Virus record (IMG/VR): IMGVR_UViG_3300045125_000031
Location: 37,242-101,241 of that record
Reading direction: 5' to 3' (one strand)
DNA length: 64,000 nt
Origin: a virus
Shown here: piece by piece, positions 3,656-56,194 of the stretch
Numbering within the stretch: position 1 is the first letter of the stretch
Layout of the letters: each line of letters starts with the position of its first letter
The notes under the pieces: generated by a model
Databases searched by the model: none
The model's input: the letters and a program-made list of their open reading frames with translations, nothing else
What the model was told of the DNA's origin: nothing
Translations under genes and position numbers: made by a program

Positions 3656-4537
3656 TATAGTACTCCGACAAAATTGATAGGCTTTTCATACTTAGAAAGT
3701 ATCTTGTCTACAATTAAATTACCAGTTCCACTAAATAATGCTTTATCAAATTGAATTCTAAACTGATCTGTATTATATGAACCAATATATCTTTTATAAT
3801 AATCTAATCTGCCACAATCAATATCGTGTATTAATAACTCTGTTGCTCTCTTAATATCTGATGGAACTTTATTATAACCAACTTCTAAAACTATTTGATA
3901 ATTCCAACCCATTGGAAATCCTCTTTGAGAAAAATTAAAATCTATATAGTCTGTTGGGGATCCAGGATATAGTATTGGTGCTGATTCATTCTTATTTATT
4001 AAACCTGCATATGTCATTGTCAATGCAGAACCGTCTCCAGTTATTTCAAATTTTACTAAAGAATTTTCTATATCATCAGCATCATACAACAAAACATTAT
4101 TTTCATAAACTTTTAAAATATTTTTTGCATTAACCTATAGTGGGATGTAATCTAATCCTAAACCTGTTGTTTCAATTACCTTTTTCTTATAATAAAATTC
4201 TTGATCTGGCAAATATGCATCAATAATTGCTCTTGCCAATTCTTCATTTTTCTTATATGACTCTATCTCTGTAGCAGTTGATCCATTATCATTTGGGTTT
4301 GAGTATGGTCTTACTACATCTACATATGTATCTTCTCCATCTACCGTGATTTTATATTGATTATCATATTTTGAAGATAGTGGAATAGTTATTTTGCCTG
4401 ATGCATTAGATGTAACTTCTCCTGTGAGTTTCTGAAGAGTCCGCCATATCAGTAATAGCGTATTCATACTCTGTAGTTGCTAAAGCAACATCAAGCATAA
4501 CGCTTAAATTATATGGCGGAACTCTTAGAATTTCCAT
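3655..4537 (-). CDS. Head-tail connector/adaptor (frameshifted)
   Basis: MEILRVPPY start; fragments ELARAIIDAY and GYNKVPSDIKRATELLIHD resemble gp6/gp15-type adaptors. Confidence 0.55.
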
Positions 4538-46342: not shown

Positions 46343-48542
46343 TACAGAGTAAGATAAACAAAAGAAAGGTGGTCTAAAATGACTACACTAACAAATAACA
46401 ATGTGCCGAGAGCACAACCCTATGAAATCTGCTATCTCAGAAATCGGAGATGAGCAATTTACTTTCTGTCAAGATTGTGAAAATAACATTGAGCGTTGGT
46501 ATGACGATACTGACCCTGAGCGTCTACCTATGTGGACAGATTGGAAAGTGTCTAAATGATAACACAATACATTGACCAAAACGAGTTTTATCTTATCAAA
46601 GATGAACAGCGTTTCTGTTGTGGCGAAAGCCAATTCCGCTATGTGTGTAAAGCGCATGGTGAGGCAATGGGTTGCTACTATTGCGAGTTTAACTATGATG
46701 AGAATTGCGAGGAACAACACTAATGATAACTCTTACACTTACCTCCTATAATGGCAATACTAAGAAAATGCCTTTCTATACAGAAAAGCAAGTGCGTAGT
46801 TTTATTTCTGCGCTACCCTCACACCTTAACAAAACAACTTCGCTAAAAGTAGAGTGTGACCTATTAGCAATTAGCGGAACAATTAGAGGAGAAAACTAAT
46901 GATAACTAACTATGAAATGACACAAGAGATAAAGTCTCTTGCTACTAAGCACTATGGTGACAATGACCTTGCATGGATGTGGGGATGTGCTCAAGCACTA
47001 CTTACCGCAACACAATTAGAGTTAATTCTTGGAATACTAAAAGATAAGGAGGTTCAGTAATGCAAAAGTTTATTTATTCTATTGCCGTTGAGGTAATTGC
47101 TGAGGATCAAGATGAAGCAACTTGGCGTATCTATAATACAAATCTAAGCGAACTAAAAACAGATTGCTTTGAGATTGAAATTGAGGAAATTGACTAATGA
47201 AAACACTTCAAGAAAAATTAGACGAAGTTGCAAAAGAATTAGAGCCAATACTTTGGGATCTACTTGATGAAATTGAAAAATAAAAATAAATAAAAAGTTT
47301 TTTGCAAAATAAAATTGCAAAAAATTCCTAGGCAATTTTCCTAGCGTGTCGTCCACAGGCTGTGGATAACTAATGTGTTTAAGGTCACACTTTTATTTCC
47401 CCGAAATACGGCGTGTCGATTTGACTTTTTGAGATTTTTGTGTTAAACTATCCATAGTTAAAAAATAAAGAAAGGATAACTAAAAATGGACTATTTAGAC
47501 TATTTAGACGAAATCTACGAGGAATTAGTAGATGAATTCGGTCATGAAATCGAATCAAATTGTATCCATGAGTGATACAAATCACACGCCCTGAGCGTCT
47601 CATTATTTGAGAATACTCGTGGGTAACTTGAAAAAATAACAAAAAAATGAAATAATAGAATTATTAGAAACTAAGAAAGGTGGCAACTATGTCAGCCAAT
47701 TTATACACTATCGAAAACCTACTCGTAGGAAAAATCTATCGCTCAAAAATCTTTGACGGGTGAAATCGTTTCAGCAGAGCCACACCCTGAAGCCGTATGG
47801 TATGACGGCGCAGAGGCTTATCGTGTAGAGGTAAGAAATGAAAATGGCGGTTATACCTATCGCTCAGTAGCAGTAAAGGTTGGTGACTAATGAAACTACA
47901 TGAATTTCAAGAATTAGTAAAGTCGCAACGCCAAGCGCAACAATTGACAAACTTAGAGAAAATCGCTAAAATTGTAGAAACAACAAAAGAAAAGGAAATT
48001 AACTAATGACTACATACACAGACTACCCATTCAATGCTCAAGGAATAAATTTTATTTCACGAGTACATACAGACTCACCATTCGCACGACAGATTGCTGA
48101 TTTGCCAGCAGGCGTATTTGAAACAATGAACATTCAAGCAGTTTCAGATTTAATGAATTTATCAACTTTCACACTTGATGAAATTAAATCAGAATTGGAC
48201 CGAGTAAATGAGGGCGGAACTCATGCGTTTATTTTGTTAGGAGAAAATAACTAATGATGACACGAAAAGACTATGTCCAAACTTCAAACATTCTAAAAGG
48301 ATTTAGCGAGGAAATTCATCCCGCAGTCTTTGAGGATTTAGTAGAGGAATTCTCTCAATACTTTCAAGCAGATAACGAGCGATTTGATAAAGCAAAATTC
48401 GAAAAAGGCTTGCGGTGTTGATGAGTTAGGATTGATAGACGCATGAACAGATTTTTAACTTCCCTTGTTCAATTATTTTTGTGGCTTCCAATTTTATTTA
48501 TAATTTATTCAGAAATAAAATCAAGAAAACAAAACTAAAAAA

Positions 48543-48568
48543 ATCCTGAGCATGATCTAAAACTGCTC
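48543..48568 (+). ncRNA. H-type pseudoknot motif copy 1
   Basis: ATC-CT-GAGCA-T-GAT-CTAAAAC-TGCTC. Confidence 0.65.
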
Positions 48569-48727
48569 AAATTTTTCCTAGGCCGTTTTCCACAAGGTCA
48601 GACTAAGTTATCCACAGGTCATTTAAGATGTGATCAAAAACACACCCAGATTTTACGGCGTGTCGTTTTGATTTTGTCAGTACAAAATGATAGACTTACG
48701 GAGTAAGAATAAAGAAAGGAAACTCAA

Positions 48728-49226
48728 ATGGGTTTAGACATGTATCTTAGTGCTAAGAAGCACTTTGCCAAGATTAATTGGCAAGCATTACAGGCTAATG
48801 ATGAACTATCTTATAATTCACCTGAAGCCGTTTTCCGTCAATTTAATGATTTAATGGAATTGACACAATTATCCTAATGTTGCAACAGACATCTATGGAG
48901 CAACAGTAGAAGTCACTTGTGCTTATTGGCGCAAGGCTAATCAAATTCATGCTTGGTTTGTAAGAGAAATACAAAAGGGTAATGATAACTGCGGTGAATA
49001 CTATGTATCACAAGACCAACTAAAGCAATTGCGTGACCTATGCCAAAAGGCATTGGATAATCGTGACCCTAATCTATTGCCACCACAAGAAGGATTTTTC
49101 TTTGGTGGAACAGACATTGACGAATGGTATTGGCAAGACCTAAAGAATACTATTGCCCAATTGGACAGGATTTTTGCCCTGCCTCAATTGTCCGATTTGT
49201 CCTTTTCCTACAGTTCTTCATGGTAG
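48728..49226 (+). CDS. Conserved phage protein (MGLDMYL/YWRKAN family), frameshifted
   Basis: MGLDMYL, YWRKANQIHAWFV, LLPPQEGFFFG and YSSSW motifs. Confidence 0.7.
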
Positions 49227-50567
49227 GGAGCGTGTCGGGTTGAAAATGTCAGCCCGACATGATAGGATTTATTTATAAAGAAAGGAAATAATATGAATAA
49301 GAAAAAAGCACTTGAAACTATTGCTAATTGTAAATTATGTAGTGGTATTGGCTATGAAGGTTGGGCGCATGGCGAGGATTTTGATATTGAGTGGTGTGAT
49401 TGTAACCCTGAACAACTAACACCAGAATTAGGATATACCTATCCTGAAAGAGATACTTGTATCGGTTGTAATGAAAATGGAGTATCGTGGGACGAACTCT
49501 ATTGCTACACTTGCTATCTTGCTAATAATGCTGAGATAGATTATACTCAGATTGACCAATTATTTATAACACAGGAGGCTAACTAATGGGAAGCAATATG
49601 GCAACAGAAATGGCAGATGGTACTCTAAGCGATTTAGGTATTAACTTAACTATTGAACAACAGATAGGGATACACCTATCGTCTAATCACTACCCGCCCG
49701 TACCCGCTATCATGATACCTGCTTGTATTGAGGCTATCGATGCCGTTAATGACGCAGGGCTGTGGGATTTAGATATTCAGATGCCTGAAGGCGTATCTTA
49801 TAAGGGTTTGACTACTGCCCCAGCATGGGCTATTATTGAACAACACCACCTAAATGCTTGGATTATCGAAAGAGAGGAATACTAAGATGGAATACTTATA
49901 CTCAGTAACTTGTACCTATGACGGAGAGGCTACACCTCGTTGGATTGGTAGATTTAGCGATTGTCTATCTGCCGTTGAAAGTTATCAAAAGTTTGTTGAT
50001 TGGGGAACTGCCGTAGAATACTCAACAATTAACTTATCAGAACCTAATGGCAAAATGCACACTAAGGTATTTAATAAAAATGGAAATGTAAGTATGCGTT
50101 AAATGTCTGATACAATGTTGAATATGGAAGACTTCACTGCTGTAGATATTCTCAATGCCGACCAGTTAGAAGTAGGAGATCTAATTGGTATCGGTGGAGA
50201 GATTGTAAAGGTGCTTGCAATTTCACCACTTCACTATGGATTTAATCTTGCTATAGAAAATAATTTTGGCGAAAAAGATTTTGTTGATGTAAGTGAAGAT
50301 GATAATTTTAAATTGTATATAGAAAACTTCTAAAAACCGGCCTAGGCAATTCGGACATATTCGGACATTTGCATTTTTGTTATTTTTATGATAAGATTAT
50401 TACATGATGAAAAAAACGGCTGAGGAATTACGCAGACTTATGGAATTACGCAGGTCTAATGCTGCAACTCCATTAAGGAACAAAAAAGCCTACTCCCGTA
50501 AAGTTAAACACAAAAAATTTGACTTATCAAAATAAAAATGTTATAATAAAAATAAAGAAAGGACCCC

Positions 50568-51287
50568 ATGAAACTAAAACGTAGCATGGATAGGAAGGTA
50601 ACTAATGCTGTCTCACCCAACGGAAAAACCCCAACAATTGCCAACACTTTTGGATTGCCTGCTGGTAAGGCTTTCTCGTGCCCTGGTGCCACTAACACTT
50701 GTGAGAGCGTTTGCTACGCAGGAAAACTTGAAAGAGTCTACAAAGGCGTAAAGGCTGTCTTACTTCATAACTGGGAATTACTAAAAGACGCTGACCATGA
50801 CACTATGGAAGCATTGCTCATGGACATGATTGCAGACTTTAGAAAAGATTGTGAAAAGAAAGACGCTCCTATGCTATTCCGTATCCACTGGGACGGTGAT
50901 TTCTTTAGTGATGACTATGCATTTGCATGGAAGACACGTTATTCTTAATAATCCTGATGTAAAGTTCTGGGTCTATACTCGTGTAGCCTCTGCTGCAGAC
51001 ATACTCAAGGGAATTGATAATCTTAGCTTATACTATTCTACGGATAAAGACAACAAAGAGATTGCTATTAGTCTAAATAAGGAAAAGGGTATTCGTTTGG
51101 CATACCTTGCAGATACCTTCGCAATTGGGCAGGCTGATCTAAAGGCAATGATAGGCAAGGTAGGGGCTAAGTGCCCTGAGAATAAAAAGGCTATTCCCTA
51201 ATTGACAAAGAGGGGTCTGCTTGTGTAAAATGTAATTTATGTGTTAGCAACAAGGCTGACATAGTGTTTAGCGCAAAGAAAAAGTGA
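50568..51287 (+). CDS. Gene product 88-like Fe-S protein (frameshifted)
   Basis: FGLPAG..CPGAT..C..VCYA, FRIHWDGDF, FWVYTR and terminal C..C..C motifs. Confidence 0.7.
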
Positions 51288-51468
51288 TAAATGAAAATCC
51301 TATTACTAATCTTGTGGGCTATCTTTATTGGGATAATTTTCTACCCACCCCTAAAGTGACCCAAATCACACGAGAGAAATCTCAAAATGTGAGAAAATGT
51401 CAAAAATAACTTGACACGGCAAGAAAAAATGTCATAATAGTAGTATAACCAACAACAAAGGAGAAAAA

Positions 51469-51636
51469 ATGTCAGTAGCAACCGCAACTTACAAGGTAGG
51501 CGACCTATACACTTCACAGAAGTCAAAGGTCACAGGCACAATTACAGAAATCAAGCCAAATCAAGACGGCTCATCTGTTCGTGTCAAACTTGATGTAAAT
51601 GGCACACCACGCTGGACAACTTGGACAGCAAAGTAA
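51469..51636 (+). CDS. 55-aa beta-barrel (SH3-like) protein
   Basis: MSVATATYKVGDLYTSQKSKVTGTI...; paralog of 52255-52422. Confidence 0.6.
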   Translation: MSVATATYKVGDLYTSQKSKVTGTITEIKPNQDGSSVRVKLDVNGTPRWTTWTAK

Positions 51637-51652
51637 TTCTCAATACGAGAAA

Positions 51653-51681
51653 AGTCCTGAGTATGACTACTAAAACTGCTC
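51653..51681 (+). ncRNA. H-type pseudoknot motif copy 2
   Basis: AGTC-CT-GAGTA-T-GACT-ACTAAAAC-TGCTC. Confidence 0.7.
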
Positions 51682-51746
51682 ACTTGACTTTCTAACTAAA
51701 AAATGTTAGACTTGACATAACCCAAACCCACTAAGAAAGGAAACAA

Positions 51747-52166
51747 ATGGCAAGAGGAAAAGCGATAAATGTAAAAATCGCTACAACTAAGGTTATCAAA
51801 GCCTTAGAAACTAAATTAGCAGAAATCAACAAAGATTTCGCAAATCAAGAAGCAAACGAGGCTAAGTATGATAAGGCTCGTAAAGCATGGGCTAAAGAAG
51901 TAGCAAAACTCGCAGTTGCTCAAATCGCAAAGGCTGAGAACTTCTCTGCTAATAAGCGATACAACAATGAAATCAACATTGACTTCAACATACCTGCTGG
52001 TCTTATTGACCTACCTGCTGAACCTGAGCGTGAGCATAAGACAATGAACGATTGGCAGTATCGTGAAATGGTTGAGGAAATTGAGAACGCAATTCGTATT
52101 CTCAAAATGACAGATGAGGAAGTAGTTTCTACTTCTACTTACAACGCTATCGCAAGATACCTATAA
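51747..52166 (+). CDS. Hypothetical coiled-coil protein
   Basis: Intact 139-aa ORF with strong RBS and its own promoter. Confidence 0.7.
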   Translation: MARGKAINVKIATTKVIKALETKLAEINKDFANQEANEAKYDKARKAWAKEVAKLAVAQIAKAENFSANKRYNNEINIDFNIPAGLIDLPAEPEREHKTMNDWQYREMVEEIENAIRILKMTDEEVVSTSTYNAIARYL

Positions 52167-52254
52167 TCAAGATGGCGGGTGCGTGGGCTATTGACAACAC
52201 CCGCCAAACTTGGTAAAATAAATACAAGACCCAATAAATAGAAAGGCAAAACAA

Positions 52255-52422
52255 ATGACATTAGGCGGATACACTTACCAAATCGGTGATTTATTCACAA
52301 CAAGCAAAACAGGAGTTACAGGTCGCATTGAAAAGTTTGTTCCACAAACTCGTAATGTAACTAAGGTTATGCTTCGTTTAGCAAATAACCAAACTCGTTT
52401 CGCAATGGTAAAGACTTACTAA
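52255..52422 (+). CDS. 55-aa beta-barrel (SH3-like) protein
   Basis: MTLGGYTYQIGDLFTTSKTGVTGRI...; upstream TTGACA-17-TAAAAT promoter. Confidence 0.6.
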   Translation: MTLGGYTYQIGDLFTTSKTGVTGRIEKFVPQTRNVTKVMLRLANNQTRFAMVKTY

Positions 52423-52434
52423 GAAAGGAATAAC

Positions 52435-52638
52435 ATGCTAAAAAAGTTATTATTGGAATACAGGCACTATTTGTTTTTTTGGTTAGTTGCTGGTGTTGCA
52501 GGTGCAAACTGCGAAGCAGAACAATATCAGGGTGCTTGTGAAGCAGGAACTGGAATTGGTTTGTTTTTAATAATGATGTTATGGGCAATTGTAGATATTA
52601 TTCTATTGCTTATTTGGTTCATTACTCGTAAGAAATAA
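52435..52638 (+). CDS. Small two-TM membrane protein
   Basis: Two hydrophobic helices flanking a Cys-pair loop. Confidence 0.55.
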   Translation: MLKKLLLEYRHYLFFWLVAGVAGANCEAEQYQGACEAGTGIGLFLIMMLWAIVDIILLLIWFITRKK

Positions 52639-52707
52639 CTTTCTTTCCTGATAAGCCCCGCTAAAAAATGAAGTGGCGAAAGTCCTTGCGGGTATTCCTG
52701 GAAAGAT

Positions 52708-52734
52708 CATCCTGAGCATGATGTAAAACTGCTC
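52708..52734 (+). ncRNA. H-type pseudoknot motif copy 3
   Basis: CATC-CT-GAGCA-T-GATG-TAAAAC-TGCTC. Confidence 0.7.
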
Positions 52735-53554
52735 CACAAAAATCGCCTAGGCGGTGTGATTTAAATCATAGTCCACTATGTGAGATGATTTACGTACTTG
52801 ATTTGATTTTCCCCCATAAAAATGCTATGATTATATTATCTTAAGAAAGGATAATTAAATGATTAGTACCGCAATAGCCCTACAGAATGTAACAAAAGAA
52901 GCAGTTCACGACGAAATAATAATGAATATGGCTCGTGCCATTTATCACACTAAAGACGGCATGTCTCCAGATGAGTTTGCCCAAGCCTTATATATGTATT
53001 CAGGAACGTTGGCTGCTTTAACAACTACATTAGTAACAAGTGTATTATTGACAGAAGCAGAAATAGATGATATGGTTAATACAATTAAAGAAATGGAAAC
53101 AATGGGAAAGGATGTTGAATAATGGAAACTCCATTTAATGCAACAATTAAAGAATATGTAGCAACAGAAGACTTTCTAAAGTCAGAAATTAAAAAGAAGG
53201 ATGAGCGAATCAAGCAACTTGAGGAGCATACTTCTGTAGTAACTCAGCGTTCATACACTGAATCTGCAGAGCGCAATCGCATGCGTAATGAAATGCAGGA
53301 ATGGACCCTGGAGCAATTGGATGAAGATTCAATCACTGAATCACAGGCAGAAGAAATTGCAAGCATTTGTGGTTTTGAATTAGCCAAGGAATTTGAGGCT
53401 GAGGTAACCGTCCAGTACTCAATTACAATTAATGCACGTAATGAAGAGCAGGCACAGAATGCAATCTATGATATTGATTTTGATTCAGTCTCATACAACG
53501 GCGATGCAATTACCTATTTGTCAGGCAGTGTCGACAGAATAGAAATTTAAAAAT

Positions 53555-53656
53555 TTGCAGGGTTCATGAAAGGCCCTGCAATGTATACGGATCCTATCTT
53601 TCATCCTTTCTTAAATAGGACCGTAAGGGACCTGAGCACGTCCATGTAAACTGCTT
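53555..53656 (+). ncRNA. Structured RNA: two kissing hairpins plus pseudoknot copy 4
   Basis: Stems TTGCAGGG/CCCTGCAA and TACGG-TCCTAT/ATAGGA-CCGTA with complementary loops ATGAAAG/CTTTCAT, then GGAC-CT-GAGCA-C-GTCC-ATGTAAAC-TGCTT. Confidence 0.65.
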
Positions 53657-53816
53657 TATAAATTTCCTAGGCACCTAGCCCGCAAAAATTCAAAATGTCA
53701 AGTATTTAAGATGTGTTTTACGTCACGTCCAATTTATCCCCTTTTACTAAGCCTATTTGACTTTTGTCGGTTGTTTATGCTAAGATTGTTAAAACACTTA
53801 CAGAAAGGACAAAATA

Positions 53817-54833
53817 ATGGCGCATGAATTAGAAACGCAAAATGGCGTTGCTTCTTTCGCATCATTCCGTGAGCCTGCTTGGCATGGTCTTGGCACAGTA
53901 TTCACGGAAGAAAAAACAACAGCAGAAATGTTATCTGCTGCTAACCTAAACAATTGGAATGTTCGTCTTGAGGACGTAAATGTTCCATCTCACTTATCAT
54001 CAGATAAGAATTATCAATACGTTATCCGTACTAACCCTACAGATAATACACAGACCGACATTCTTGGTGTTGTCGGTGAGCGTTACCATGTTTTACAGAA
54101 TGAAGATTTATTCTCATTCGGTGATAACATTCTTGACGGCGGAGGTCGTTGGGAAACGGCTGGCTCTATTCGTGGAGGTCGTGTCGTATTCGGTTCTCTT
54201 GCTCTTGAGCGTGAGACAATTCTTGACCCTAATGGTGTTGCCGATAAGGTAAAAACTTATTTGCTTATCAACACATCACATGATGGTTCTATCGCTATTC
54301 AAGCAAGCATAACACCTGTTCGTGTTGTGTGCGCTAATACTCTTAACCTTGCTTTAGGTTCTAAGCGTGGAAAAAATGCTATCAAGCAGACATTCAAGAT
54401 ACGCCACACGCAGACCGCAAGTGGTAAGGTACAAGTTGCTCGTGAGACTCTTGGTCTTGCTAATAAGTACATGGACGCTTTTGATGTTATGGCTAAGGCT
54501 ATGATTGAGAAAGAAATCACAGCGCAACAGTTCAATGACATTGTGCTTGCTGCTTATCCAAAGCCTGATGAAGAAAAAAAGGGCGCACTTACTCGTTGGA
54601 CTAATAAGGTTGATGTTATCAATGACATCTACACAGGTGAGTTCAATGGAATGATTGCGGGTAACGCATGGGGTGCTTTCAATGCACTAACTGAACGCCT
54701 TGACTGGCATCGTTCTGCTCGTGGTGGAAATACTGAGGCAATGCTTGCTGCTGCTTCTGGTTTTGACCCATCAATTACAGCAGAAAAAAATCGTTTGCTA
54801 AGTATTGTAAAAAATACTTTAGCGATTGCATAA
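53817..54833 (+). CDS. DUF932/DUF945 phage-plasmid protein (TIGR03299-like)
   Basis: PAWHGLG, YHVLQN, WETAGSIRGG, NTSHDGS, PVRVVCANT and IRHT motifs. Confidence 0.85.
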   Translation: MAHELETQNGVASFASFREPAWHGLGTVFTEEKTTAEMLSAANLNNWNVRLEDVNVPSHLSSDKNYQYVIRTNPTDNTQTDILGVVGERYHVLQNEDLFSFGDNILDGGGRWETAGSIRGGRVVFGSLALERETILDPNGVADKVKTYLLINTSHDGSIAIQASITPVRVVCANTLNLALGSKRGKNAIKQTFKIRHTQTASGKVQVARETLGLANKYMDAFDVMAKAMIEKEITAQQFNDIVLAAYPKPDEEKKGALTRWTNKVDVINDIYTGEFNGMIAGNAWGAFNALTERLDWHRSARGGNTEAMLAAASGFDPSITAEKNRLLSIVKNTLAIA

Positions 54834-54842
54834 GTAATCGCA

Positions 54843-54869
54843 ACTCCTGAACATGAGTATAAACTGTTC
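54843..54869 (+). ncRNA. H-type pseudoknot motif copy 5
   Basis: ACTC-CT-GAACA-T-GAGT-ATAAAC-TGTTC followed by a T tract. Confidence 0.7.
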
Positions 54870-55459
54870 ACTTTTTTATTTTGCAATTGCAGATCATAAA
54901 ATAAAAATAAAAAATTTGCTAGATAAACCAAAATCCACACAAAACGGACATTGTATTTTTGATTTTATTTTATTACGTAGCACTTGATTTTTTTGCTGGA
55001 TTGTGGGACAATTAATACATGACCCTAAAAGTAGAAATATATGAAATGGAATATTCCGTATCCCCTGGTGGTGTAGATTGCTGGGAGGTTAATATACAAG
55101 GCTATGGATCAAGTAGATGTATATCTGACTTTGATACTGCTGGTCAGGCTCTTAATTGGGTAGTTGACCAATACCCTGACAAGATGATAGAATTGACAGT
55201 AACATCATTACCTGCCTATGAAAAGGAATATGCATGAGACAAACCTTTAAACCCTACACAATTGATGAATTAGTTACAACTATCTATGAGGACAATTTAG
55301 ATCATTTTGAGTTCATGGAGAACATGAATGGTGGAGATTGTGACTGTGCTTTACACAATACTATGAATACTATCATTAGGTATTGGGGAGAGTAGGACTT
55401 GACATACCGTTGCATTTTTGCTAAAATTTAATTACGAACCCACAAGAAAGGACCCCTGA

Positions 55460-56194
55460 ATGCCAAATTGGTGTTACAACTCATTATCTATCGAAGGTAG
55501 CAAGGAAGAAATCTCTGCTATCAAAACACAACTTAACAAACCATTTACCATAATGCATGACCAATGGAACATGGAAACAGGTAAAATGGAGTTAACAGAG
55601 ACAGCCTATTCTAATCCTGTCTTTGCATTTCATAATATATATAATCATACACAGGCTGGTATTAGTGATGAGGAATATATTCAGCAACCTGACCATTCCC
55701 TACCAATTGAGGAAGCCATGAAGTTTAAGGGCAACCATTGGTACGATTTCAATGTTCGTGAGTGGGGTACCAAATGGGATGTAGCCGTTAGAGACGGAGA
55801 AGACTATCCTGAGACTGAACTAATGGAGGAGAGTGATACTTCTCTTGCATACCGTTTCAATACTGCGTGGTCTCCACCTCTACCTGCGATTGAGGCTTTG
55901 TCTGGACAGTACCCTGATGTAGAGTTTAATCTATCTTACGAAGAAGAAACTGGCTGGGGTGGAGAAAATCTATTTATCGACGGTAGCGGAACTGAGATAG
56001 AGGTTTATAACAATAAGTGTAGAGACTGCGATTCATTAGATAGTCTTGAGTATTGTGACAATGGCTGTGGTGAGGTTTGTAATGAATGTCACTACATGGG
56101 CGAGGCAGACCTTGAAGAAGTTGCGGAATGTGAGGACCACAAGATATACTTAGATAACGTACCCGATTATAGAAAGGACCAACTTAATGTCTAA
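55460..56194 (+). CDS. DUF1281/YubB ferredoxin-like domain protein
   Basis: MPNWC.N, WYD....WGTKWD and FNTAWSPP motifs. Confidence 0.8.
   Translation: MPNWCYNSLSIEGSKEEISAIKTQLNKPFTIMHDQWNMETGKMELTETAYSNPVFAFHNIYNHTQAGISDEEYIQQPDHSLPIEEAMKFKGNHWYDFNVREWGTKWDVAVRDGEDYPETELMEESDTSLAYRFNTAWSPPLPAIEALSGQYPDVEFNLSYEEETGWGGENLFIDGSGTEIEVYNNKCRDCDSLDSLEYCDNGCGEVCNECHYMGEADLEEVAECEDHKIYLDNVPDYRKDQLNV

Follow-up and report, generated by a model that had tools for sequence, protein, structure and literature searches.

A structured RNA behind an early-type gene unit of an uncultured phage: compensatory stems, invariant loops and a possible pairing with ribosome-binding sites

Why should a phage rewrite the stems of an intergenic RNA again and again and leave its loops untouched? 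The question is raised by a locus in a 64,000-nucleotide (nt) stretch of viral DNA (hereafter the window; bases 37242-101241 of the 101-kb IMG/VR virus record IMGVR_UViG_3300045125_000031, which has 36% G+C and is ~92% complete). Here, a 266-nt gap separating two plus-strand genes (53122-53550 and 53817-54833) carries a ~105-nt folded plus-strand RNA of three modules (two hairpins and a pseudoknot), placed right after a two-gene early-type unit (52859-53550). A first-pass annotation had described this element as a kissing-loop small RNA (sRNA), derived from a 3'-untranslated region (3'-UTR), that displays an anti-Shine-Dalgarno (anti-SD) sequence and shuts off early or host translation. Direct reading of the sequence finds hairpin 1, hairpin 2, the pseudoknot and the loop complementarity all present as claimed. 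The element is a new, covariation-supported structured phage RNA that is absent from Rfam. As to its role, pairing with ribosome-binding sites (RBSs), in cis or in trans and in its own operon first, is the tentatively preferred reading, at a probability judged to fall slightly short of even.

Both hairpins are kept by compensatory change

53555-53581, plus strand: hairpin 1, a 10-bp stem (53555-53564 with 53572-53581; eight Watson-Crick and two U-G pairs) with loop CAUGAAA
53586-53625, plus strand: hairpin 2, 4 bp, a one-base bulge (A53591), 6 bp and a 17-nt loop (53598-53614), CUUUCAUCCUUUCUUAA

In the minimum-free-energy fold of 53548-53690 (z = -2.6), both hairpins form with their loops open, the two U-G pairs closing the loop of hairpin 1. 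The comparative set comprised 80 loci with a relative of the downstream DUF932 gene and 74 loci retrieved by a pattern that combined a CCTTTCTT loop with the pseudoknot, from which 22 distinct sequences sharing the three-module layout (hairpin 1, hairpin 2, pseudoknot; variant A, the form at 53555-53656) were aligned for covariation. In this alignment 98.4% of the cells are paired and 16/29 pairs have changed on both sides, such changes affecting 7/10 pairs in hairpin 1 and 8/10 in hairpin 2. None of 500 shuffled alignments matches the observed pairing and covariation, and pairing falls to 31-45% when the partner columns are shifted. The stems have been rewritten repeatedly among the relatives (UUGCAGGG/CCCUGCAA, UUCCUGGCC/GGCCAGGAA and UUGCGUGG/CCACGCAA); though they differ at most positions, all 22 sequences keep AUGAAAGG in the first loop and 15 nt (CUUUCAUCCUUUCUU) in the second. 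Both hairpins are thereby shown to be kept by compensatory change, with their loops frozen. Conserved as well are the stem lengths, which are equal in the two hairpins, and the bulge of hairpin 2, which is also kept in two further forms of the module (variants B and D, below).

Within the stems, G-U cells outnumber A-C cells by 48 to 2 (8 to 2 without the invariant wobbles), and the folded strand is therefore the plus strand. Between the 53550 stop codon and the element there is no promoter-like site, nor is there a plus-strand terminator within the element, and we infer its co-transcription with genes 52859-53550. The earlier placement of a structured plus-strand RNA in a 3'-UTR accordingly agrees with both the covariation in 22 relatives and the lack of a promoter-like site after that stop codon.

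Searches of Rfam 15 at the gathering threshold yield only a transfer RNA (tRNA) across the whole window, and at an expect value (E) of up to 10 no match from 52500-53900 overlaps 53552-53660. Among cultured phage genomes, megablast finds nothing and sensitive blastn gives chance matches only (E at least 0.5). The element is present once in the 101-kb genome, and a covariance model of hairpins 1 and 2, run over 655 kb of related loci, adds three weak matches only (L073, L083 and L145). A pairing of UCCUUU with AAGGGA just 5' of the pseudoknot was also considered and rejected as a general feature because AAGGGA is missing in variant C and in L084.

The hairpin-2 loop and its candidate partners

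53604-53612, plus strand: anti-SD-like core UCCUUUCUU, within which UCCUUUCU is identical to the final 8 nt of the 16S tail GAUCACCUCCUUUCU
52841-52852, plus strand: RBS region of unit gene 1, TTAAGAAAGGAT, 7 nt before the ATG of the 52859-53122 open reading frame (ORF)
52859-53122, plus strand: unit gene 1, 87 amino acids (aa), no family (ORF list and family searches)
53106-53114, plus strand: RBS of unit gene 2, GAAAGGATG (GAAAGGAUG), complement of CAUCCUUUC in the hairpin-2 loop
53122-53550, plus strand: unit gene 2 (142 aa), without a confident family; hairpin 1 begins 4 nt after its stop codon
53757-53786, plus strand: promoter-like site of the next unit (TTGACT, 18 nt, TAAGAT; TGTCGG within), with a similar site in relatives
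53802-53809, plus strand: DUF932 gene SD, AGAAAGGA, which complements the loop over 8 nt only (-10.2 kcal/mol)
53817-54833, plus strand: downstream gene, DUF932 / phrog_1221, 338 aa

The frozen loop of hairpin 2 carries the sequence UCCUUUCUU, an exact complement of the ribosome-binding motif (A/U)AGAAAGGA(U), in which UCCUUUCU complements AGAAAGGA; the loop is a copy of the end of the 16S tail GAUCACCUCCUUUCU and a complement of the RBS of the surrounding gene block alike. Actinobacteria share the GAUCACCUCCUUUCU 16S tail. The same tail, ending in CCUCCUUUCU, is recorded for several bacteria (PMC6288834). An actinobacterial host is likely, because the nearest cultured relatives of its DUF932 protein belong to large Streptomyces phages and those of its capsid protease to Streptomyces and Rhodococcus phages. 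The phage group is uncultured, comes from freshwater and is related to actinophages (large Streptomyces phages). Genome contigs gave no usable host, as just three metagenome-assembled contigs were found, with conflicting taxa (Beijerinckiaceae, Nitrososphaera and Actinomycetes) that are probably binning artefacts. These contigs (L160, JBIPLL010000643.1; L161; L162) belong to the phage group, one of them having a 99% identical DUF932 protein, and are probably mis-binned viral contigs. One near-identical contig stems from a bin of Lake Mendota.

The distribution of the motif within the phage is uneven. AGAAAGG occurs 15 times on the plus and five times on the minus strand of the genome, and ten plus-strand copies stand 5-9 nt ahead of start codons (genes 48713-56171). 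In the window, whose genes lie on the minus strand up to ~45 kb and on the plus strand beyond, 13/14 plus-strand copies fall within 46.3-56.2 kb. The minus-strand genes, which are structural or late, show hardly any SD signal (AGAAAGG upstream in 0/129, GGAG in 13/129). Because the plus-strand copies cluster in this block and none precedes the 129 minus-strand genes, AGAAAGG can be regarded as a private RBS dialect of the early-type block, used almost only there; the same block houses the pseudoknots. The phage thus seems to possess two translation-initiation regimes, one for the AGAAAGG block and another for the minus-strand genes. The same ten starts (48713-56171), set beside 0/129 minus-strand genes, uphold the earlier statement that the loop complements an RBS used by many early genes, and the only intergenic plus-strand CCUUUCU of the block is the hairpin-2 loop itself. 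Written as AGAAAGG(A), the motif is confined to the plus-strand early-type block (46363-56177 of the window).

Among 206 start regions, the two most stable predicted duplexes with the loop are those of its own unit. The start of gene 2 ranks first (-15.7 kcal/mol), with GGAAAGGAU retained in relatives, and that of gene 1 second (-14.1 kcal/mol), where TTAAGAAAGGAT matches the loop 12-mer ATCCTTTCTTAA (53603-53614) as its exact reverse complement. For relatives with a correctly called start, the start regions of the unit itself take ranks 1-6. Duplexes of -9 kcal/mol or below are predicted for 7/16 block genes vs 13/190 genes elsewhere, and the complements of the loop at RBS positions span 8-13 nt, the own SDs exceeding other block genes by just 1-3 bp. 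The complementarity of the loop, checked in relatives, is kept in all 22 distinct sequences of this form. By contrast with the phage sites (-12 to -16 kcal/mol), canonical GGAGG and AAGGAGGU sites yield weak duplexes (-3.1 and -5.6 kcal/mol); therefore, the host shut-off suggested at first is unlikely to operate by pairing.

The 12-nt match to the RBS region of the first gene, to which the first-pass annotation had drawn attention, is exact at 52841-52852; it is mostly the shared consensus, and its flanks do not clearly covary with the flank of the loop. Since the 9-nt core AAGAAAGGA has eight plus-strand occurrences, the extension to 12 nt at one site is not significant alone. Occlusion in cis of the downstream DUF932 RBS was examined too and is disfavoured, as the complement is of 8 nt only and the promoter-like site lies in between; this RBS is never among the matches of at least 9 nt in relatives of the variant A form, and it falls far below the own-unit sites in most relatives, being the best site in L139 only. 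The promoter-like site ahead of the DUF932 gene has itself a wider distribution, as the distant relatives L083, L113 and L128 retain TTGAC(A/T) and TGTCGG-N10-TAnnnT in it.

Under the preferred reading, the hairpin-2 loop would act as a mimic of the 16S ribosomal RNA 3' tail, base-pairing with AGAAAGGA sites in competition with the ribosome. Such pairing would lower translation and possibly expose the messenger RNA (mRNA) to decay. In a cis mode, the 3'-UTR would fold back onto both start regions of the mRNA that carries it, which are the two best predicted targets; in a trans mode, the RNA would act after its 3' end had been trimmed off. Hairpin 1, with its SD-like loop, may pair with the 5' half of loop 2 over 7 bp and so set or gate the anti-SD half, while the pseudoknot would serve as a 3'-end or processing/stability module. 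A bolder extension, which we consider doubtful, is an RNA-only timer in which the frozen 16S-mimic loop titrates the AGAAAGGA RBSs of early genes under the gating of hairpin 1; late genes would escape because they lack the AGAAAGG motif.

Pseudoknot, module variants and the weighing of explanations

48542-48568, plus strand: pseudoknot copy 1 (relaxed pattern)
51653-51681, plus strand: pseudoknot copy 2 (relaxed pattern)
52708-52734, plus strand: pseudoknot copy 3, after a different structured module (52640-52706)
53628-53656, plus strand: pseudoknot copy 4, at the element (stem S1 GGAC/GUCC, linker L1 CU, stem S2 GAGCA/UGCUU, L2 C, L3 AUGUAAAC)
54843-54869, plus strand: pseudoknot copy 5 (S2 GAACA/UGUUC), followed by a U run

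The pseudoknot was said to cap the 3' end of the element, and it does directly follow hairpin 2; it is not specific to this place. With a relaxed pattern, the window has five good copies (cores at 48545, 51656, 52711, 53631 and 54846), and with a stricter one there are 302 copies in 81 sources (80 related loci and the early block of the window), all on the gene strand, with the consensus NNNC-CU-GAGCA-Y-GNNN-(N)UAAAC-UGCUC. Stem S1 amounts to 4 bp in 124/158 unique copies, with 25 different core triplets, as set against shuffled partners. Stem S2 is nearly fixed as GAGCA/UGCUC, with the compensatory forms AAGCA/UGCUU (12), GAGUA/UACUC (4), GAACA/UGUUC (2) and GGGCA/UGCCC (1). Covariation hence supports both stems of this H-type topology, and the linkers CU and UAAAC are constant. 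Such constant loops suggest that the motif is specifically recognised, be it by a nuclease or a binding protein, or that catalysis is involved.

The copies come after stop codons of early-type genes and are followed by a promoter-like site, a U run (49/158 unique copies), the next RBS without a promoter, or a tRNA gene. As some copies in relatives have a stop codon before them and the next RBS after them without an intervening promoter, the pseudoknot is not an efficient terminator; it is a dispersed punctuation motif at the ends of at least five units, most likely with a processing or stability role. Hairpins 1 and 2 are site-specific cargo ahead of copy 4.

Other features accompany the pseudoknot copies. 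In L066-L080 (~4026-4075), a tRNA gene follows 8-10 nt after a copy, a hint of some connection with RNA processing. In the module ahead of copy 3 (52640-52706), an outer pairing of CUUUCUUUCC with GGAAAGA encloses a hairpin with a GCGAAAGUCC core; L002 and L007 keep this module, and L003, L008, L012 and L013 have a variant of it. Furthermore, ~10-15 nt past many pseudoknots (52745-52760 and 53668-53690 in the window, and in relatives), an A run is followed by a short GC-rich palindrome that varies among relatives (CCTAGG, TTCGAA, CCCGGG, GGGCCC, GCCCCCGGGGGC). Read on the minus strand as a hairpin with a U run, these palindromes may be antisense terminators or, alternatively, protein-binding sites. 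Between the pseudoknot and the DUF932 promoter, L083 (minus orientation, ~4310-4345) has a tandem of two perfect DnaA boxes (TGTGGATAA), which may mark an origin or operator region, and other relatives have TGTAAC...GTTACG inverted repeats in that region.

The hairpins ahead of the pseudoknot occur in several forms. Hairpins with a CCUUUCUU loop stand directly before it on at least four stem backgrounds that share hardly any sequence or none, and behind different genes. In variant B, hairpin 2 has the same bulge, and a hairpin-1-like stem with a AAUGAAAUG loop extends over the end of a different upstream gene; variant C consists of one hairpin only, with the stop codon within its stem; variant D combines a GGGG-loop hairpin with hairpin 2; variant E lies behind an Hsp20-like gene in a different phage type with GGAG sites; L002 and L073 are further forms of the module. 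The occurrence of pyrimidine-loop hairpins on so many stems and genes argues that the loop is the functional core, and it cautions against any one simple model. The GGGG-loop hairpin (GAUAG-GGGG-CUAUC or UAGUAG-GGGG-CUACUA) contains the upstream stop codon in its stem, its stems covary and its loop is fixed; this is an SD-like loop exactly where ribosomes terminate. It precedes the pseudoknot of the DUF932 upstream region by ~30-60 nt (L005-L071 and others; e.g. L005:2715-2745).

The proposed contact between the two hairpins involves the following segments.

53566-53572, plus strand: AUGAAAG, candidate kissing partner, also SD-like (GAAAGG); -6.8 kcal/mol
53598-53604, plus strand: CUUUCAU, 5' half of the hairpin-2 loop and complement of AUGAAAG; invariant in variant A sequences

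The two segments match over 7 contiguous bp (-6.8 kcal/mol), a match that is kept in all 22 variant A sequences, and a loop-loop match of at least 7 nt arises by chance in 0.5-1% of shuffled or random loop pairs. The equal stem lengths of the hairpins would suit side-by-side packing, and a kissing contact is plausible. Variant B retains just 5 bp of the match. A scan anchored on loop 1 (ATGAAAGG) and the pseudoknot gave 38 true matches, all with the same hairpin-2 loop, besides four unrelated ones, and no altered partner was found. The GAAAGG of loop 1 could equally pair with the anti-SD half, CCUUUC. Of the kissing loops described at first, the exact complementarity (ATGAAAG/CTTTCAT, 7 bp) stands; the contact is without covariation, and two relatives speak against it.

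Several observations weigh against RBS pairing with gating by hairpin 1. Within the kissing contact, G53572 is also part of the hairpin-1 stem, and the duplex without it reaches only -3.0 kcal/mol. The kissing loops, both invariant, offer no covariation, L073 has CUUUCAU without any hairpin 1, and L002 has neither complementary loop. That the loop is identical to the 16S tail of the host is a presumption. With regard to the targets, shuffled loops give a mean of 13.5 (maximum 26) start regions at -9 kcal/mol or below vs the 20 observed; there is therefore no genome-wide enrichment, and the enrichment in the block alone stands out. Of the 12-nt match to 52841-52852, relatives retain 9-11 nt, and one of them fewer than 9; complementarity to a shared RBS consensus cannot, by its nature, tell targets apart. 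In variant C the start region of the upstream gene is not complementary to the loop, and variant E retains the loop with no AGAAAGG site in 12-13 kb. Finally, 61/80 relatives have a short GGGG(G)-loop hairpin at this position and only 11 the two-hairpin form, and the function is therefore dispensable or replaceable.

A structural or protein-binding 3'-end module is an unlikely reading that nonetheless deserves serious weight. In this case, the frozen loops would be recognition sites (for the protein S1, an RNase or a 16S-tail factor) or parts of a tertiary fold, and the element would, together with the pseudoknot, control processing or stability of the upstream mRNA, with the RBS complementarity incidental or the RNA a decoy. 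Both loops are invariant, which goes beyond a mere seed; the equal, conserved stem lengths and the bulge fit a defined three-dimensional fold; the module always adjoins the pseudoknot, whose loops CU/UAAAC and S2 also hint at specific recognition; variant E keeps the loop away from any AGAAAGG sites; and most relatives carry the GGGG-loop hairpin at the same place. However, the neighbouring proteins belong to no RNA-binding family and offer no candidate, and the exact complementarity of the loop to a block-confined motif, as well as the top ranks of its own operon, would be left unexplained.

A strictly trans-acting version, in which cleavage of the 3'-UTR releases a stable ~100-nt sRNA that serves as a global switch covering the SDs of early or host genes, is improbable. 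It can draw on the 9-13-nt complement common to ~10 early genes, on the lack of the motif in the late minus-strand genes, which would so escape, on the compact 3' pseudoknot as a possible stabiliser of a processed fragment, and on the precedent of anti-SD loop sRNAs of Gram-positive bacteria (PMC6486639). Nevertheless, one 3'-UTR copy would face many abundant mRNAs to titrate, canonical host SDs form weak duplexes (-3.1 and -5.6 kcal/mol), the sites of its own operon complement the loop best and there is no internal promoter within the element.

Very improbable is a transcription terminator or attenuator, with the GC-rich hairpin 1 or the whole array stopping or pausing the polymerase at the unit end as part of a terminator-promoter cassette. 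The position between a stop codon and the next promoter-like site, the U runs after 49/158 unique pseudoknot copies and a resemblance to the PeSL cassettes of T4-type phages (PMC2839356, PMC4122927) speak for it. On the other side, no plus-strand U tract follows hairpin 1 or 2 (a scan of 53550-53700 finds no plus-strand terminator, and the tail after hairpin 1 is AAUGUAUACGG), 15 invariant loop bases would be needless for termination, and in some relatives no promoter accompanies the pseudoknot in the gap from the stop codon to the next RBS. For hairpin 1 alone, the terminator reading was rejected on the plus strand; its minus-strand tail is U-rich, but there is no convincing minus-strand gene nearby to read into it.

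The last explanation, that there is no RNA element and that the segment represents a DNA-level site, a chance palindrome or a 27-aa micro-ORF of either strand together with its RBS, has a next to negligible probability: although 27-aa ORFs exist on both strands and AAGAAAGG precedes an ATG on the minus strand, stops and frame changes interrupt the plus-strand ORF from the loop-1 AUG in relatives, the minus-strand ORF (which the first-pass annotation had itself named as its competitor, and which fails on checking) varies from 7 to 57 aa with an SD that abuts the ATG without a spacer, and the compensatory stems with their G-U bias denote a plus-strand RNA fold. As their frames are not conserved in relatives, the micro-ORFs on either strand were rejected as genes.

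Whatever its function, the element defines a covariation-supported structured RNA outside Rfam, and the intergenic regions of a large freshwater phage group are made up of swappable RNA modules (G-rich-loop hairpin, anti-SD-loop hairpin and pseudoknot). If the loop does pair with early RBSs, this would be the first phage case of temporal control by an RNA that copies the anti-SD tail of the ribosome, and it would mean that a phage can keep a private SD dialect for one gene class; the timer, if true, would be an RNA counterpart of T4 RegA/RegB.

Comparison with known systems

Purine riboswitches have a kissing contact between loops L2 and L3. The two hairpins resemble this arrangement in being neighbouring helices of equal length with complementary loops, and differ from it in lacking a closing helix or junction, a ligand context and covariation support. 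In T4-type phages, PeSL cassettes place a repeated stem-loop and an early promoter around small accessory genes of a variable region (PMC2839356, PMC4122927). The likeness lies in modules that are swapped among relatives, whereas PeSL stem-loops are simple terminators and the present locus has an H-type pseudoknot with invariant loops and two frozen-loop hairpins. Promoter-like sites follow some of the five pseudoknot copies, while other copies precede an RBS or a tRNA gene, and there is no sequence relation.

In phage T4, RegB cuts GGAG and RegA binds start regions, so that early genes are shut off at their RBSs. The likeness is functional only, since RegA and RegB are proteins and the present agent would be an RNA that mimics the 16S tail. 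Phages P1 and P7 transcribe the c4 antisense RNA together with its target operon; the loops of c4 block an RBS, and it lies upstream of the target and is released by RNase P; Citron and Schuster reportedly described it in 1990. Both would be phage RNAs within the transcript of a target operon, with loop-RBS pairing that blocks translation, but c4 is placed upstream of its target and matches unique operon sequences, as opposed to the shared SD motif here, and the two are not homologous.

RsaE/RoxS are C-rich-loop sRNAs of Gram-positive bacteria. The 6C and B11 sRNAs of actinobacteria similarly have C-rich hairpin loops that are anti-SD-like (PMC6486639). Common to this class are loops that show anti-SD pyrimidine motifs and pair with purine-rich RBSs without a chaperone, and 6C also has two hairpins. 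The hairpin-2 loop shares the features of being unpaired in the minimum-free-energy fold, pyrimidine-rich and complementary to SDs. It differs in being U/C-mixed instead of made of C runs, in lying in a 3'-UTR without a promoter of its own and in being phage-encoded, and no Rfam model of the 6C/RsaE families matches at the element.

The parallel to the cis mode is the icaR 3'-UTR of Staphylococcus aureus, where a pyrimidine-rich anti-SD motif complements the SD of its own mRNA, with blocked initiation and decay as the proposed effect (PMC3868564). The motif there is UCCCCUG, compared with UCCUUUCUU here, where it sits in the loop of a covarying hairpin accompanied by an adjacent hairpin and a pseudoknot. 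Moreover, two start regions and many other genes match in the present case, and the context is a phage. What the two would have in common is the principal feature of the preferred reading, namely a 3'-UTR anti-SD motif set against the SD of its own mRNA, with a Gram-positive type of host in both.

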